From Bdellovibrionota bacterium FG-2 (GTDB lineage Bacteria; Bdellovibrionota; UBA1018), in NCBI GenBank assembly GCA_051382305.1, contig JBBCAV010000071.1, positions 1 through 10,050 on the forward strand: a DNA stretch of 10,050 nucleotides, in the 5' to 3' direction. Made by a program: the position numbers and the translations under genes. Below the pieces are notes generated by a model that had not been told where the DNA came from, searched no databases, and saw only the letters and a program-made list of their open reading frames with translations. Below are positions 5,602-10,050 of the stretch, piece after piece. Each line of letters starts with the position of its first letter. Position 1 is the stretch's first letter.

Positions 5602-6441
5602 ATGGAAAATCAAAAAGCGGTAATCATAGCCGTGGCCACCCAAAAAGGGGGCGTCGGAAAAACAACGACAACCGTCAATCTTGCGCAAGCCCTATCCTTA
5701 CTAGGTGAAACCGTCCTGGTCGTAGATCTCGATCCCCAGGGCAACGCTACGCAAGGTCTCGGGATCAAACTTGATCAGGTGACTGCTTCAATTGCGGATC
5801 TGCTCCGTGACAAAACGTTTCCTGAGCAAAGTGCGATTTACAAAGGGCCGGGCCTCGACTTGATCCCTGCAACACCGCTGCTTGCACGAATGGGGCGCGA
5901 ACTTGTTGGAATCACAAACGGTGAAATGCGACTCGCTCTACGGTTGCGAGCTTTATCACTTCGCTACTCGGTCATTCTAATTGACACTCCCCCATCAGCG
6001 AGCACACTGATGAACTCGTCTTTGAACGCGGCAAACAAGCTGATTGTGCCGGTCGACTCAGGCTTCTACGCAATGATGGGAATCAGGGAGTTGCTCGCGG
6101 AGGTTGAGGAGATTCGCGCAGCTTCGAATCCCGGTTTAGCAACCCTAGGTTTCTTACTTACGATAATAGATCAAACCCGTATTGCTGATGAGGTTTGCCA
6201 GGGTCTCATATCGAACTTCGGAGAGGAGGTATTTGAGACCAAGATCCATCGCAACGTGAAGCTCAAAGAAGCGCCCGCTTTCGGAAGAACGATCTTTCAT
6301 CACGCCCCCCACTCCCAAGGCGCAACCGACTACATGAGTTTAGCACAGGAGGTTTTGCAAAGATTGAAGTCAGAGCACACAGGGGCGACAAGTCCCAAGC
6401 GTGATATACGCTTAAGCCTTGTCGAAGGGGGCGCACAATGA
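5602..6441 (+). CDS. parA: ParA/Soj-family Walker-type partition ATPase
   Basis: QKGGVGKTTT deviant Walker A, VVDLDPQGNAT, ILIDTPPS Walker B, LKEAPAFG. ATG 5602 preferred over 5590 because GGAG (5592-5595) lies 6 nt upstream. Confidence 0.95.
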   Translation: MENQKAVIIAVATQKGGVGKTTTTVNLAQALSLLGETVLVVDLDPQGNATQGLGIKLDQVTASIADLLRDKTFPEQSAIYKGPGLDLIPATPLLARMGRELVGITNGEMRLALRLRALSLRYSVILIDTPPSASTLMNSSLNAANKLIVPVDSGFYAMMGIRELLAEVEEIRAASNPGLATLGFLLTIIDQTRIADEVCQGLISNFGEEVFETKIHRNVKLKEAPAFGRTIFHHAPHSQGATDYMSLAQEVLQRLKSEHTGATSPKRDIRLSLVEGGAQ

Positions 6442-7727
6442 GTGAGCGCAAAGAGCTAAAGCGAGTGATTGCGGACTTTCCATTTAAAAAACCCCTCCCT
6501 ATCAAGCGAAGTTCGGTCGAGTTGAAAGCTCCGGTTGAGGAGGCACCCGACCCCCAAACGGCCTTGATCAAATCGATTATAGAGGAAAGTCTGTCCACAA
6601 CGGACACTCTTTCAAGCCCACAGTGTTCAGAAATGACAGTATCCACCGCGAACAGTGTGCAAGCTAAACCCTCCTCTGAACACACCACAGTATCCAAATT
6701 GAACACTGTGCCAGATGCGATTGCCTCACGCCCTGTGGAAAGGCTTCAAGGGAATTTCACGCAAGTTCCAAACACGCTTTTGCGAACAGCGGGCATGTTC
6801 GAGGACCCGTTTGACTTCATGATCTACCTGCTCTTGTATTCGTACTCCTACGGGTTTGGCAGAGACACGGCCAGCATGAGTCAATCTCAGATCGAGAACT
6901 TTGCAGGAGTTTCAAAGAATCGGGTTAAGCGATCCCTGGATCGTTTGATCAAGCAACGGTGGATAAAGCGCATCGGGGAATTCGAGCGTTCACGGGTTTC
7001 CCGAAAGTGGCGCGTCTTCGCGCCTGAGGAGCGCAATCCGGGACCCAAGAAGTCAAACAGCACAGTGGCCAGCGCGCACACTGTGCAAAACGCACAGAGT
7101 CCGCAGCAGACACCTACAGTGTTCGCGGCGGACACCGTCACACTATCCACAACGGATACGTTCAAAGAAAGGGGATCCAAAAATAGTTTTTCAAACAAAG
7201 CTCTCTCTGCAATTTCAGAAAACTTGAACTTGCTGGAGTATTTCGACGGACTCAAGCCAATGCGAAAGAGAGAGAGCGAACTCAAGGCTTTTGAAGAACT
7301 CCAGGGGGATTTTTCGGATGTTGAAATTGCTAATTGCCTGTCCCATCTTCAATGCAAAGGCCTCCCAGGAAGGGACGCATGTCACTCTCCGATGACGTAC
7401 CTTGCTCGGGCTATGGGAAATGTTTTGCCGGTTGTGAAATCAAACCAGGAAGCCCAGCGAAGGACTGCCGAAAACGCCGCAAAGATTGAACTCCAAAAAC
7501 AGAAAGATGCCGCGATTGAGGCTCGGGAGAGGAGCGAGTGGGAGGAAAAAGAGCGTGCGTTCGTAGAAGCGTTTCCAGAACAGCGTGAGCAGGAGGAAGC
7601 CGTTGTGGGCTTTTGCGTGCAAAACGGGTTTTTCACGACAAAAGGTCAGGCTGCGCGGATTTTCGCGATTGGGGCTTGGAGCCGGGGGATGAATCGCGAA
7701 GAGAGCGAGGTTGTTATGGTAGGTTAA
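6438..7727 (+). CDS. Putative replication initiator with winged HTH (phage O/replisome-organizer-like)
   Basis: NFTQVPNTLL..IYLLLYSYSYGF..SMSQSQIENFAGVSKNRVKRSLDRLIKQRWI is a typical initiator wHTH; C-terminal SPMTYL segment; ATGA overlap with parA; internal iterons. Confidence 0.75.
   Translation: MSERKELKRVIADFPFKKPLPIKRSSVELKAPVEEAPDPQTALIKSIIEESLSTTDTLSSPQCSEMTVSTANSVQAKPSSEHTTVSKLNTVPDAIASRPVERLQGNFTQVPNTLLRTAGMFEDPFDFMIYLLLYSYSYGFGRDTASMSQSQIENFAGVSKNRVKRSLDRLIKQRWIKRIGEFERSRVSRKWRVFAPEERNPGPKKSNSTVASAHTVQNAQSPQQTPTVFAADTVTLSTTDTFKERGSKNSFSNKALSAISENLNLLEYFDGLKPMRKRESELKAFEELQGDFSDVEIANCLSHLQCKGLPGRDACHSPMTYLARAMGNVLPVVKSNQEAQRRTAENAAKIELQKQKDAAIEARERSEWEEKERAFVEAFPEQREQEEAVVGFCVQNGFFTTKGQAARIFAIGAWSRGMNREESEVVMVG
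6592..6705. repeat. Iteron cluster 1 (palindromic TRTYC-N5-GRACA)
   Basis: TGTCC-ACAAC-GGACA 6592; TGTTC-AGAAA-TGACA 6624; TATCC-ACCGC-GAACA 6640; TATCC-AAATT-GAACA 6691. Confidence 0.75.
7066..7158. repeat. Iteron cluster 2; probable replication origin
   Basis: TGGCC-AGCGC-GCACA 7066; TGTGC-AAAAC-GCACA 7082; AGTCC-GCAGC-AGACA 7098; TGTTC-GCGGC-GGACA 7120; TATCC-ACAAC-GGATA 7144. An AT-rich tract follows (~7179-7230). Confidence 0.75.
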
Positions 7728-7842: not shown

Positions 7843-8112
7843 ATGGAGAAAGAAAAAGAAATAGCTCACAGCCCACAGTTAAACGAATCAACTCGCACGC
7901 CTCTTCACGATCAGTTTGATTCGGCAAAGCCAATTTATCCAGATAGCCAGTCGGCGATAGAGGCCCTTGGCTTTAAATTAGAACAGTTGGCCGCGAGCGT
8001 CGGCAAAAGTAGGGAAACCCTTTTGCTGGAAGCTCACACGGCATCCCATTATCAGCCGCAGCATCGGACCGCTTTGAATCTTGAGCGCCAAATCAACTTG
8101 CTGAAATCATGA
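7843..8112 (+). CDS. Small protein, putative antitoxin
   Basis: 89 aa with a good RBS; ATGA overlap with the next gene. LEQLAASVGKSRETLL loosely recalls the LxxFExxYGxSSxxF partners of DUF6516 proteins. Confidence 0.55.
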   Translation: MEKEKEIAHSPQLNESTRTPLHDQFDSAKPIYPDSQSAIEALGFKLEQLAASVGKSRETLLLEAHTASHYQPQHRTALNLERQINLLKS

Positions 8113-8573
8113 AACACGATTGGAACACGCTGGACGACTACTTGTCGGTTCATCATCGTATTCTCCATTTTTATGGAAAATACATGGAGACCCCAAAGGC
8201 TGCTTACCAGGTAACTCAGTTAACCCCCAGGTTTTATACCTTGGAATGCGCGGGGATCATTTTTCGTACTTATCTTTCAAATCGCGTTCGCGTAGATATT
8301 TACAAGGAAATCTTGGTCGATGATTCAAATCCAAGACGGCGACGCGCTCGCACTATAGGCTATAGTTACAATGCCAATACGCCCCAAGGGGCAAATCTAA
8401 TTCGATACGACAGTCCCGATCCACTCAGCACACTTGGGACAAATTCACCCCATCACCACTCGTATCATCACAAGCACGACGAGAGCGTTTCTCCCTCAAG
8501 AATTATTCGAATTGAAGATGACGAATATCCGCATGTTGGTGAGTTCTTTGACGAGATTCTTAGTCGCTTTTGA
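8109..8573 (+). CDS. DUF6516/TumE-like putative toxin
   Basis: YSY..LIRYD..PHH..YHHKH..P...EFFDEI matches the DUF6516 signature (RYD..H..HHxH) as I recall it. Confidence 0.65.
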   Translation: MKHDWNTLDDYLSVHHRILHFYGKYMETPKAAYQVTQLTPRFYTLECAGIIFRTYLSNRVRVDIYKEILVDDSNPRRRRARTIGYSYNANTPQGANLIRYDSPDPLSTLGTNSPHHHSYHHKHDESVSPSRIIRIEDDEYPHVGEFFDEILSRF

Positions 8574-8588
8574 AAAGGATAGTAGACA

Positions 8589-8699
8589 TAGACGGTCCCC
8601 TTCTTAACACCGAGGACTAACCGCAAACAAAAAAGTTGCGGGTACCTCCAGAGAGATGCTTGATGATCTCTCAACCATTTAAATTAAGGAGACCGTCTA
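8589..8699. repeat. 14-bp inverted repeat covering the transposase RBS
   Basis: TAGACGGTCCCCTT (8589-8602) vs AAGGAGACCGTCTA (8686-8699), 13/14 complementary. Confidence 0.85.
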
Positions 8700-9818
8700 A
8701 TGAGCGAGAAAGTACTATTTATTGGCCTGGATGTCGATGACAAAGCTTTTCATGGAGCAGTCCTAGTCTCGAATCTTGGAGAGCTAATCGAGTTTAAATG
8801 CAGGCCTCATGTCGATGGGCTGAGCAAGAAACTTAAGGAACTCCAAGCCCGATTTCCTGACCATAAAATTCGAATTTGTTACGAAGCCACCTATATCGGC
8901 TTCACCCTTCAACGAGACCTTGCGAAAAAGGGCTTTCATTGTGATGTCATTGCTCCGGGGAGCATCCCAAGGACCTATGGTAACCAAGTCAAAACCGATC
9001 GTGTGGATGCCGGCAAGCTGGCTCAGTATTACTGCTCTGGCCTGCTCGCAATCGTTACCCCGCCCGACGAACAAACCGAGAAGGACCGCGATTTATTGCG
9101 ATCCAGAGCATTCGTAATGGGACAACTCTCCGAGGTGAGAACTCACATTCACTCACTGCTTCGGCGTGCCGGCAAGAACTTCAAGGTTGAAACGGGTAGC
9201 AAATCTCACTGGACTAAACACCACTTGTGCTGGATTGAACGAGTAATTGCGGACTCTTCTGGGTGTTTCAGATCCAATCTCGATCTGCTCTACAAACAAA
9301 TGAAATCTCTAAATGTCACACTGGCTGAATACGATGCGGCGGTGGATGAACTCGCGGCTAGCCCTCGTTACGTGAACCAGGTGCAGGCACTCACGTGCTA
9401 CCGCGGGGTGAAGAATCTTTTTGCCATGGTTATGATCACTGAGATCGGCAATATCAAACGATTCCCGCACCCCAGGAAACTCGTCTCGTGGATGGGAATG
9501 GACATTCGGGAATACTCCTCGGGAGGAAAGCAAAATCGCTTCGGCATCACAGGTCATGGCAATCGATATCTTCGTACCGCCTTTGTTGAGGCAAACCAGA
9601 AGAGCTTTCGAAGCCCGGTGTCCGGTAGTGATGTGCGGCTACGAAGACAAAAGCTCCCGCCGCCTCTGGTTGAAATCGCCGAGCGCTGCCAAAAGCGAAT
9701 CTACAAAAAAGGGAACCGATTGCTTCATGCAGGAAAGCACCCCAATAAAGTCAAAGTTGCCTGCGCGCGAGAAATGGTGGGATTCGTCTGGGAATCCCTA
9801 AACAAAGTTGCAGCATGA
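8700..9818 (+). CDS. IS110-family DEDD transposase/recombinase
   Basis: FIGLDVD, CYEAT, KTDRVDA RuvC-like DEDD; C-terminal WMGM..EYSSGG..GIT..GNRYLR with the catalytic Ser; ACARE; AAGGAG RBS. Confidence 0.97.
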   Translation: MSEKVLFIGLDVDDKAFHGAVLVSNLGELIEFKCRPHVDGLSKKLKELQARFPDHKIRICYEATYIGFTLQRDLAKKGFHCDVIAPGSIPRTYGNQVKTDRVDAGKLAQYYCSGLLAIVTPPDEQTEKDRDLLRSRAFVMGQLSEVRTHIHSLLRRAGKNFKVETGSKSHWTKHHLCWIERVIADSSGCFRSNLDLLYKQMKSLNVTLAEYDAAVDELAASPRYVNQVQALTCYRGVKNLFAMVMITEIGNIKRFPHPRKLVSWMGMDIREYSSGGKQNRFGITGHGNRYLRTAFVEANQKSFRSPVSGSDVRLRRQKLPPPLVEIAERCQKRIYKKGNRLLHAGKHPNKVKVACAREMVGFVWESLNKVAA

Positions 9819-9851
9819 AAAAATGAACGAAAAGAATTTCTAGGAAAGGAG

Positions 9852-10035
9852 TTTCACTTTCAGCGTGAAAAAGCGGGTCTTTTGAAAGGGTAAGACAGAC
9901 TCAACGGGAGCCCACCGGAATTGCCCTTAGTCTAAAGCGACTGTGGATAGATTGTGGATAACCGTTACGGACAAATCTTAATGCGTTAGCCAGTACGCGA
10001 ATACGAGGTTGTAAGTCAAAGGTCGAACCTGACTT
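9852..10035 (+). ncRNA. Candidate IS110 bridge/seek RNA
   Basis: Non-coding and hairpin-dense: TTTCAC/GTGAAA 9852-9870; GTCTT/AAGAC 9877-9896; AACGG/CCGTT 9903-9966 closing a large loop; TGCGT/ACGCG 9982-9999; AAGTCA..GGTcgaACC..TGACTT 10013-10035. Confidence 0.6.
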
Positions 10036-10050
10036 TCAAAATGATCCATG

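Follow-up and report, generated by a model that had tools for sequence, protein, structure and literature searches.

A probable bridge RNA/seekRNA in the 3' non-coding end of an IS1111-type insertion sequence from Bdellovibrionota bacterium FG-2

What does the long non-coding DNA encode that follows a transposase gene at the end of contig JBBCAV010000071.1 of Bdellovibrionota bacterium FG-2 (assembly GCA_051382305.1)? The window analysed here is this whole contig at its full length (G000:C71:1-10050; 10,050 nucleotides (nt)), and the stretch in question, positions 9819-10050, lies 3' of a transposase/recombinase gene of the IS110 family (8700-9818; 372 amino acids (aa)). A preliminary description had proposed this stretch as a candidate bridge RNA with a target guide matching the left flank of the element, a core of AG, and a right end lying beyond the window. 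Our analysis indicates that the DNA from 8583 to about 32 nt past the window is very probably an IS1111-type (IS110-family) insertion sequence of 1500 bp, the 3' non-coding end of which encodes a bridge RNA/seekRNA. All features described below are on the forward (+) strand; C-numbers denote contigs of the assembly and L-numbers denote loci.

The right end of the element was found on two other contigs. Contigs C388 and C166 both begin with an exact copy of the final 127 nt of the window, and hence the assembly forks at the window end. On both contigs the right end reads ...GGGGACCGTCTATACGAG; past the window they run ...TTGACAGGGGACCGTCTATACGAG, diverging only after that, and with the one-base difference between the two ends shown the sequence is ...ATCCATG(G/A)AAATTCACGTTGACAGGGGACCGTCTATACGAG. 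This continuation contains an inverted copy of TAGACGGTC followed by ACGAG, just as had been predicted from the window. On the left side, the window tracks uninterrupted copies of a dispersed repeat (...GGATAG/GA..., the slash marking the junction) up to GGATAG, which places the left junction at 8582/8583, where it had been suspected, while the right junction on C388 tracks such copies from AGGA onward. Because the two junctions overlap the empty sites by AG, we set the start of the element at 8583, its end at ...CTATACG, its core as AG (the dinucleotide proposed before) and its length as 1500 bp. The junctions seen are thus GGATAG/TAGAC...CTATACG/AGGGCAAT. The empty sites and both right junctions have only AG in common, indicating sequence-specific insertion with no long target duplication, as is characteristic of the IS1111 group.

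The architecture of the termini agrees with this group as well. The last 6 nt of host DNA (8577-8582) consist of the left target half GGAT and the core AG; they equal the start of uninterrupted repeats (...ACGGATAG/GAAAATT in C208, C260, C364 and C284), which read ...ACGGATAG/GAAAATTAAAACGG in C208 and C260 and carry other right halves past GGATAG in C364 and C284. The element then opens with the terminal extension TAGAC (8583-8587), followed by a 13-nt subterminal inverted repeat ATAGACGGTCCCC (8588-8600), whose inverted copy GGGGACCGTCTAT lies just beyond the window at positions 144-156 of L065/L066. With the core AG counted, the terminal extensions are AGTAGAC on the left (7 nt) and ACG on the right (3 nt), in accordance with the 7/3-nt convention for IS1111 elements given in the available part of Siddiquee et al. 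2024 (PMC11187229), and the repeats fall in the range of about 11-13 bp that goes with these extensions in the group. Of the two non-coding parts, the one ahead of the ATG measures 117 nt (8583-8699) and the one that follows the stop codon 264 nt (9819 to the window-equivalent position 10082); the longer one is downstream of the transposase gene, again as in the IS1111 group.

The hexamer GGATAG that first drew attention to this region does recur at 9945-9950, identical to 8577-8582 and enclosed by AACGG (9903-9907) and CCGTT (9962-9966). The preliminary description had called a 6-nt match weak when taken alone, and rightly so, for the window holds five copies of GGATAG where 2.5 are expected, and a count of five is reached by 13 of 200 shuffled sequences. 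Following the definitions of target and donor guides in the available part of Durrant et al. 2024 (PMC11208160), we assign the left-target guide to GTGGATAG (9943-9950), in which GGAT plus the core AG equal the left flank. The right-target guide, which had been overlooked together with the outer closing helices, is ATTGCCCT (9920-9927), that is, ATTGCC plus the core-binding CT. Its reverse complement is AGGGCAAT, the 8 nt with which the flank past the right end opens on C166, a match at 8/8 positions including the core (AG-GGCAAT), versus 5/8 non-core positions for the flank on C388. The left-target guide lies on the 3' side and the right-target guide on the 5' side of one loop, so that two segments of this loop match both target strands around the insertion point including the core, a hallmark of bridge RNAs and seekRNAs. 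The segment complementary to the top strand precedes (is 5' of) that for the bottom strand, and the same order has been described for IS1111 seekRNAs (PMC11187229).

The same correspondence is seen in related elements. A search of one genome per species gave 64 loci with best-segment identities of about 42-70%, all in metagenome-assembled genomes (of Pseudobdellovibrionaceae, Gammaproteobacteria, Acidobacteriota, Nitrospirales and others), and 26 of the 37 loci with near full-length matches have subterminal repeats of this kind at matching distances. At the column of the left-target guide the relatives carry GGCTAG, GCATAG, GAATAG, GTATAG or GGATAG, mostly identical to their own left flank, and the GGATAG end of the guide in the window sits at exactly this column, in support of its earlier assignment. 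The left-target guide agrees with the left flank at 4.30 of 6 positions versus 3.55 after shuffling (23 distinct pairs; 0/20000 shuffles reach), and the right-target guide with the right flank at 5.07 of 8 versus 3.57 (44 distinct pairs; 0/20000 shuffles reach), counts that overstate independence because related elements inherit guides and targets together. A smaller first pass with 21 elements agreed. The left counts exclude L011 and L039 (flank too short), L061 and L032 (left end unrecognisable) and the second entry of the element itself; the right counts exclude L016, L021, L039 and L034 (end off the usual distance, or flank too short).

Both guides are embedded in a conserved structured RNA, as expected for a bridge RNA/seekRNA located in the long non-coding end. 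The post-stop regions of the relatives align well, and a covariance model of 144 positions (R1), built from 24 regions following the stop codons of relatives, places the RNA immediately after the transposase match at 58 of the 64 related loci, which answers the earlier call for such a model of homologous 3' ends. Thirty-five of these 58 loci are outside the training set, three of them being near-copies of training members. With filters off, R1 also gives 23.7-35.1 bits about 40 nt past the stop codon of three plasmid genes whose products are only ~34% identical. The core of the RNA in the window (9887-10029) scores 120.9 bits with R1, a value obtained for a sequence that was in the training set. 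In its own genome the whole RNA is found on C71 only.

The RNA domain extends from 9860 to the window end at 10050, where it is truncated, with the 3' strand of its outermost helix 5-14 nt past 10050. This helix, P0b, is formed by TCAGCGTGAA (9860-9869) and TTCACGTTGA (L065, positions 132-141), and its best form has 10 bp; inside it, P0a joins TTTTGAAAG (9880-9888) with CTTTCAAAA (10033-10041) by nine Watson-Crick pairs, and the differing sequences of relatives also pair. Among 49 distinct elements, cognate 5' and 3' flanks pair better than swapped ones for both helices (P0b, mean 10.18 vs 7.71; P0a, 7.35 vs 5.79; 0/5000 shuffles reach in either case). The target-binding loop is closed by P1 (model helix 1; AACGG, 9903-9907, with CCGTT, 9962-9966; 96.1% of cells paired, compensatory changes in 4/4 pairs) and by P2 (CCAC, 9912-9915, with GTGG, 9954-9957; 98.6% of cells paired). 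The donor-binding loop is closed by P4 (GGAC, 9969-9972, with GTCA, 10015-10018), which pairs in 92.5% of cells in relatives and changes from GGAC/GUCC to GAAC/GUUC in 11 rows, and holds the hairpin P5 (TGCGT ... ACGCG, 9982-9999; 99.6% of cells paired, one compensatory change). Taken together over a 63-row alignment, the four core helices have 96.9% of cells paired compared with 91.8% in shuffles and 22-48% when the partners are slid, and compensatory changes occur in 9/17 pairs (42 changed cells vs 9.1 in shuffles). Fold energy does not show the region to be hairpin-rich, as it is no better than in shuffled sequences (z +0.34).

Two further repeats were noticed within the RNA. In the relative at L015:1661-1818 a stretch of 15 nt is duplicated in tandem (GATAGTGGTAACCCC twice), covering the last part of the left-target guide along with the 3' strands of P2 and P1. 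In the window, positions 9943-9961 form a near-direct repeat (GTGGATAG ATT GTGGATAA), of which the second copy is the 3' strand of P2 plus the junction; the GGATAA in it also equals the start of the repeats of the C166 type (GGATAAG).

Could the GGATAG match be a coincidence, and the 3' region a mere untranslated tail or terminator of the transposase mRNA? The 6-mer match alone is within chance, the energy of the fold is unremarkable, and nothing in Rfam 15 matches 8000-10050 at E values up to 1. However, the right end is exactly as predicted, empty sites were found, structure and guides covary across dozens of loci, and no terminator-like site was detected on the + strand of the 3' region. 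We consider this explanation practically untenable because it is contradicted by the right end, the empty sites, and the covariation of fold and guides; the observation stands above chance owing to the predicted right end, the target copies starting with GGATAG, and the covarying structure and guides.

The bridge-RNA reading also requires a donor-binding loop. The second module noted previously is indeed present: the TGCGT (9982-9986)/ACGCG (9995-9999) hairpin is directly followed by AATACGAG (10000-10007), the left-donor guide, which ends in the core AG and whose ATACGAG equals the last 7 nt of the right end plus core on C388 and C166. As the donor guide proposed earlier it is borne out by the relatives, where the donor 7-mer equals the right tip exactly in 39/51 cases (ATACGAG 24, ATATGAG 14, ATAAAAG 1) and the C/T variant tracks the tip. 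For the other half of the donor loop, the candidate right-donor guide is ATCTT (9975-9979), complementary to the AAGAT with which the left end starts in most relatives; both change together in L026 (ACCTT with AAGGT). This assignment is tentative because the candidate pairs with just 3/5 nt here and misfits in L018 and L037. Three of the four guides are supported, the right-donor guide being a weaker candidate.

Alternatively, only the first module might guide, as a short seekRNA, with P5 and AATACGAG serving as a protein-binding scaffold and the ends being recognised by the transposase via the 13-nt repeats. SeekRNAs of 82-96 nt with target matches only have been described (Siddiquee et al., PMC11187229); moreover, the right-donor guide is weak here and inconsistent among relatives, and since the donor 7-mer exists in three versions only, a small number of events may account for its agreement with the right tip. 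We nevertheless find this alternative unlikely, as the donor 7-mer covaries with the right tip in all three versions (39/51), L026 alters both the candidate right-donor guide and the left end, and both modules are enclosed together by covarying outer helices. Donor loops are also predicted for IS1111 elements in Durrant et al. (PMC11208160).

Several points nonetheless weigh against our main reading of an insertion sequence that encodes a bridge RNA. As for the structure, one helix of R1 as built was off by a column, and this helix was recounted on the model-fitted alignment; helix P4 forms just 3/4 pairs in the window element; the single-sequence fold of 9887-10029 (-32.4 kcal/mol, z +0.34) is no better than shuffles; and no sigma-70-like promoter was detected on the + strand ahead of the RNA. 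As for the guides, the 8-nt left-target guide departs from the flank at its two outermost positions (4/6 non-core positions matching), matches to the flank are poor in some relatives (2/8 in L006, 2/8 in L044 and 3/8 in L041), and the shuffles ignore relatedness, guides and targets being common by descent among related elements. In the donor loop, 12/51 right tips are one base off the donor guide, the C/T change of that guide possibly represents just two or three events, and ATCTT pairs with 3/5 nt of the element's own left end TAGAC and fails in L018 and L037. In addition, the assembly has a single left junction and two right junctions, so the pairing of flanks is ambiguous. Production of the RNA, its binding by the protein and RNA-directed recombination are what we infer from the published mechanism of the family.

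The predicted protein of the recombinase gene matches PF01548 and PF02371 as well as NF033542 ('IS110 family RNA-guided transposase'; 195.7 bits versus a cut-off of 140), and thus combines the DEDD (RuvC-like) N-terminal domain with the C-terminal Tnp domain bearing the SG motif that define IS110/IS1111 transposases. In an alignment of 12 sequences, the transposase and 11 relatives, D11, E62, D100, D103 and S274-G275 are invariant. As judged from its sequence, the open reading frame (ORF) is full length and intact with all catalytic residues present, in line with the first impression of it. Among solved structures the sole sequence match is the ISCro4 transposase, a weak one (E 6.9e-4). The assembly has only one complete transposase gene of this type; more distant IS110-family genes or fragments (28-32% identical) occur in the same genome at G000:C260:8188-8355, C69:148-1008 and C153:52529-53176, the one on C260 lying about 140 nt past a copy of the target repeat.

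Alternatively, the copy could be dead or crippled, with its RNA architecture a relic, for example because the left end TAGAC (not AAGAT) would no longer fit its donor guide. In favour of this, the left end deviates from that of every relative at two of its first five positions, with the candidate guide unaltered, helix P4 is weakened, and there is the one complete gene of this type in the assembly. However, apart from the full-length ORF and its catalytic residues, there are two different right junctions with a one-base difference in the end, in the run X1 contigs the element body is covered at roughly double the depth of the flank, and both target guides match a flank perfectly, so that we regard a dead copy as very unlikely.

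In these contigs the element body has a depth of 19.7, the left flank one of 10.6 and a 79-nt piece (8577-8655) one of 30.1, values that are not copy numbers but hint at two full copies plus a further fragment. One path in this run leaves after 8655, and a contig of 2793 nt has 8576-8607 in common with the window with 2 differences; extra left-end fragments may exist outside the binned genome. No joints were found in the run X1 contigs, and hence neither a circle junction nor an empty site is seen there. The sequencing runs listed as containing this stretch include no RNA run. Joined to the left flank on C71, either right flank would restore a repeat start of correct length, and the flank on C166 is the one that matches the guide perfectly. 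An unoccupied perfect target, GGATAGGGCAAT, has no exact match in the assembly (minimum contig 1006 nt, 85% complete), and allowing up to one mismatch gives 20 matches, approximately the number expected under a uniform model.

The two outer helices P0b and P0a enclose the target-binding loop (P1/P2) and the donor-binding loop (P4, with hairpin P5). If the published model applies, the element would excise as a circle joining right end, AG and left end (CTATACG-AG-TAGACATAG); the DEDD/SG recombinase and the RNA would pair the donor loop with the circle junction and the target loop with GGAT-AG-GGCAAT, and strands would be exchanged at the AG core. The observed junctions are those that this model yields. 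Because no promoter-like site lies ahead of it on the + strand, the RNA may be cut from the transposase transcript; a 'long form' seekRNA precursor is mentioned in PMC11187229. We also considered a promoter formed at the circle junction, where a conserved TTGACA lies 18 nt before the first post-core base, but rejected it as the left-end hexamer TAGACA makes a poor -10 box; a promoter scan of the junction gave only a hybrid with the C388 flank.

Into what kind of site has the element inserted? The right flanks on C388, C166 and C197 represent three dispersed repeat families whose copies measure about 110-130 nt. For each family roughly 6-7 copies were found, starting with (G)GATAG, GGATAAG or GTATAG and ending with CTTACTGAGA or GCTGAGTCAG; they are often located immediately past an ORF or close to the end of a contig, and tandem copies occur on C77 and C39. 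Copies include L068:156-276 (C208), L069 (C260:7938-8048) and L070-L076, and window positions 8577-8582 are the edge of one. Besides those starting with GGATAG, uninterrupted copies read GGATAAGCCGTTCAAACGCGG in C65 and C201, CGATAAG... in C422, GAGTATAG/CCCGTTCAAACC in C93 and C77, and GAGTATAG/GCCGTTCAAACC twice on C39. The check on empty sites and other flanks suggested in the preliminary description thus yielded a target consensus, GAGgATAG/AGGaagaATAAA.g.c.TtTT (31 distinct left and 45 distinct right flanks), with GGATAG as the first bases in uninterrupted copies. This consensus (GAGgATAG/AGG....ATAAA......TtTT, about 30 nt) is conserved past the range of the guides and in several phyla. 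Nearly all relatives have TAG at the end of the left target, the most distant ones TAAG or TTAG.

On C197 (L067:1-165) the third repeat family adjoins, at GTATAG/CCCGTT, an orphan right end of a related element, comprising its last ~165 nt and 84% identical over 68 nt. It ends ...GACCGTCCATACGAG, its last 38 nt (...TTGACAAGGGACCGTCCATACGAG) are duplicated in tandem, and no transposase gene of its type was found in the assembly.

An integron attC site was considered as the target and rejected. Such sites have an imperfect hairpin with RYYYAAC/GTTRRRY ends in a cassette array; the repeats here do not fold better than shuffles (z -1.06, +1.21 and +1.43), the right flanks of 14 relatives lack attC-like end pairing (GTTRRRY is present in 2/14, L023 and L020) and show inverted repeats of at most 8 nt with their first 30 nt, and no integron integrase scores above the cut-off in the own genome (85% complete). 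It is because of the missing hairpin fold, end pairing and integrase that we reject the attC label. An integron integrase is present in 4/5 genomes of relatives; of the three that could be placed, two are about 250 kb or more away and one is on another contig. A search of 12 target-repeat loci against Rfam gave only GadY (E 0.8, under the gathering score), which we took as chance. The site in the own genome is therefore best described as the 5' edge of dispersed repeats of ~110-130 nt that follow ORF ends and are neither attC-like nor an Rfam family. In many relatives (L003, L004, L015, L001, L005, L020, L027, L037 and L045) the right flank also carries (A/G)AGTAT some 33-37 nt past the insertion point; this motif resembles the left target GAGTATAG, and the target region may hold an internal repeat. 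One could go further and suppose that the clade homes on the starting bases of cassette-like repeat elements of a class not yet described, which the insertion sequence would then mark as a new mobile or recombination site; we put this forward as a rather improbable conjecture.

Upstream of the element, a 429-aa ORF (6438-7727) matches HTH_36 and, below its cut-off, Phage_rep_O, and the element may therefore sit in a phage- or plasmid-like region. Two small ORFs directly ahead of it (7843-8112 and 8109-8573) have no family match in Pfam or NCBIfam. The TAG at 8580-8582 is in frame with the second of them, two codons past its TGA.

Recombinases of the IS110/IS1111 type guided by RNA are under development for DNA insertion without double-strand breaks. 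The known mechanism is unchanged by the present finding. It adds an annotated natural example from a little-sampled clade, with its ends, AG core, target, three of four guides and a fold of ~200 nt, together with some 45 related elements whose guides have been naturally reprogrammed, and it accounts for assembly breaks here and at many short repeats. What distinguishes the element is its somewhat longer protein, a clade seen here only in uncultured genomes, the AG core and a repeat target that matches no Rfam family.

How, then, does the element compare with known systems? IS4321/IS5075-like elements are reportedly located at Tn3/Tn21-family ends, in work attributed to Partridge and Hall from 2003. 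The nearest annotated plasmid relatives of our element (~34% identical) recall them in that two of the three examined sit about 80 nt past a Tn3-family transposase gene (L089:1-2301 in NZ_CP010775.1 and L090:1-2307 in LR723678.1), and all three plasmid relatives carry an RNA recognised by R1. Our element differs in the low protein identity and in its target.

The bridge RNA of IS621 is said to be treated also by Hiraizumi et al. in 2024. As in the RNA of this IS110-group element (PMC11208160), there are two internal loops here, one reading both target strands and the other the donor, and a 2-nt core within the guides. Unlike in IS621, as far as the available part of that paper describes it, the RNA is located at the right and not the left end, the guides stand in reverse order in the loop, the core is AG and not CT, the subterminal repeats are long, and the right-donor guide is without clear core pairing. 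ISPpu9 of Pseudomonas putida (PMC12288879, available in part) is likewise an IS110-family element in dispersed repeats with a small-RNA gene downstream of the transposase, and has extra orphan copies of the RNA gene with which the orphan right end on C197 may be compared; host and target are different.

In its design the element conforms to the IS1111 group with a downstream seekRNA (ISEc11, ISKpn4, ISPst6 and ISPa11; PMC11187229), as judged from the published descriptions of these elements. Both have a DEDD transposase, 13-nt subterminal repeats, 7/3-nt extensions, a long downstream non-coding region, the top-strand-complementary segment in 5' position, and a fixed insertion point in a repeated sequence. 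The transposase described here is longer (372 aa versus 330-350 aa for the family), its relatives of more than 40% identity were found only in metagenome-assembled genomes, and its target is the start of a repeat of ~125 nt instead of attC, REP or a Tn21 end. Durrant et al. (PMC11208160) and Siddiquee et al. (PMC11187229) described this kind of bridge RNA/seekRNA in 2024, and the IS1111 RNA folds in their supplementary figures may already depict the same architecture; the element of Bdellovibrionota bacterium FG-2 is a further example of it.

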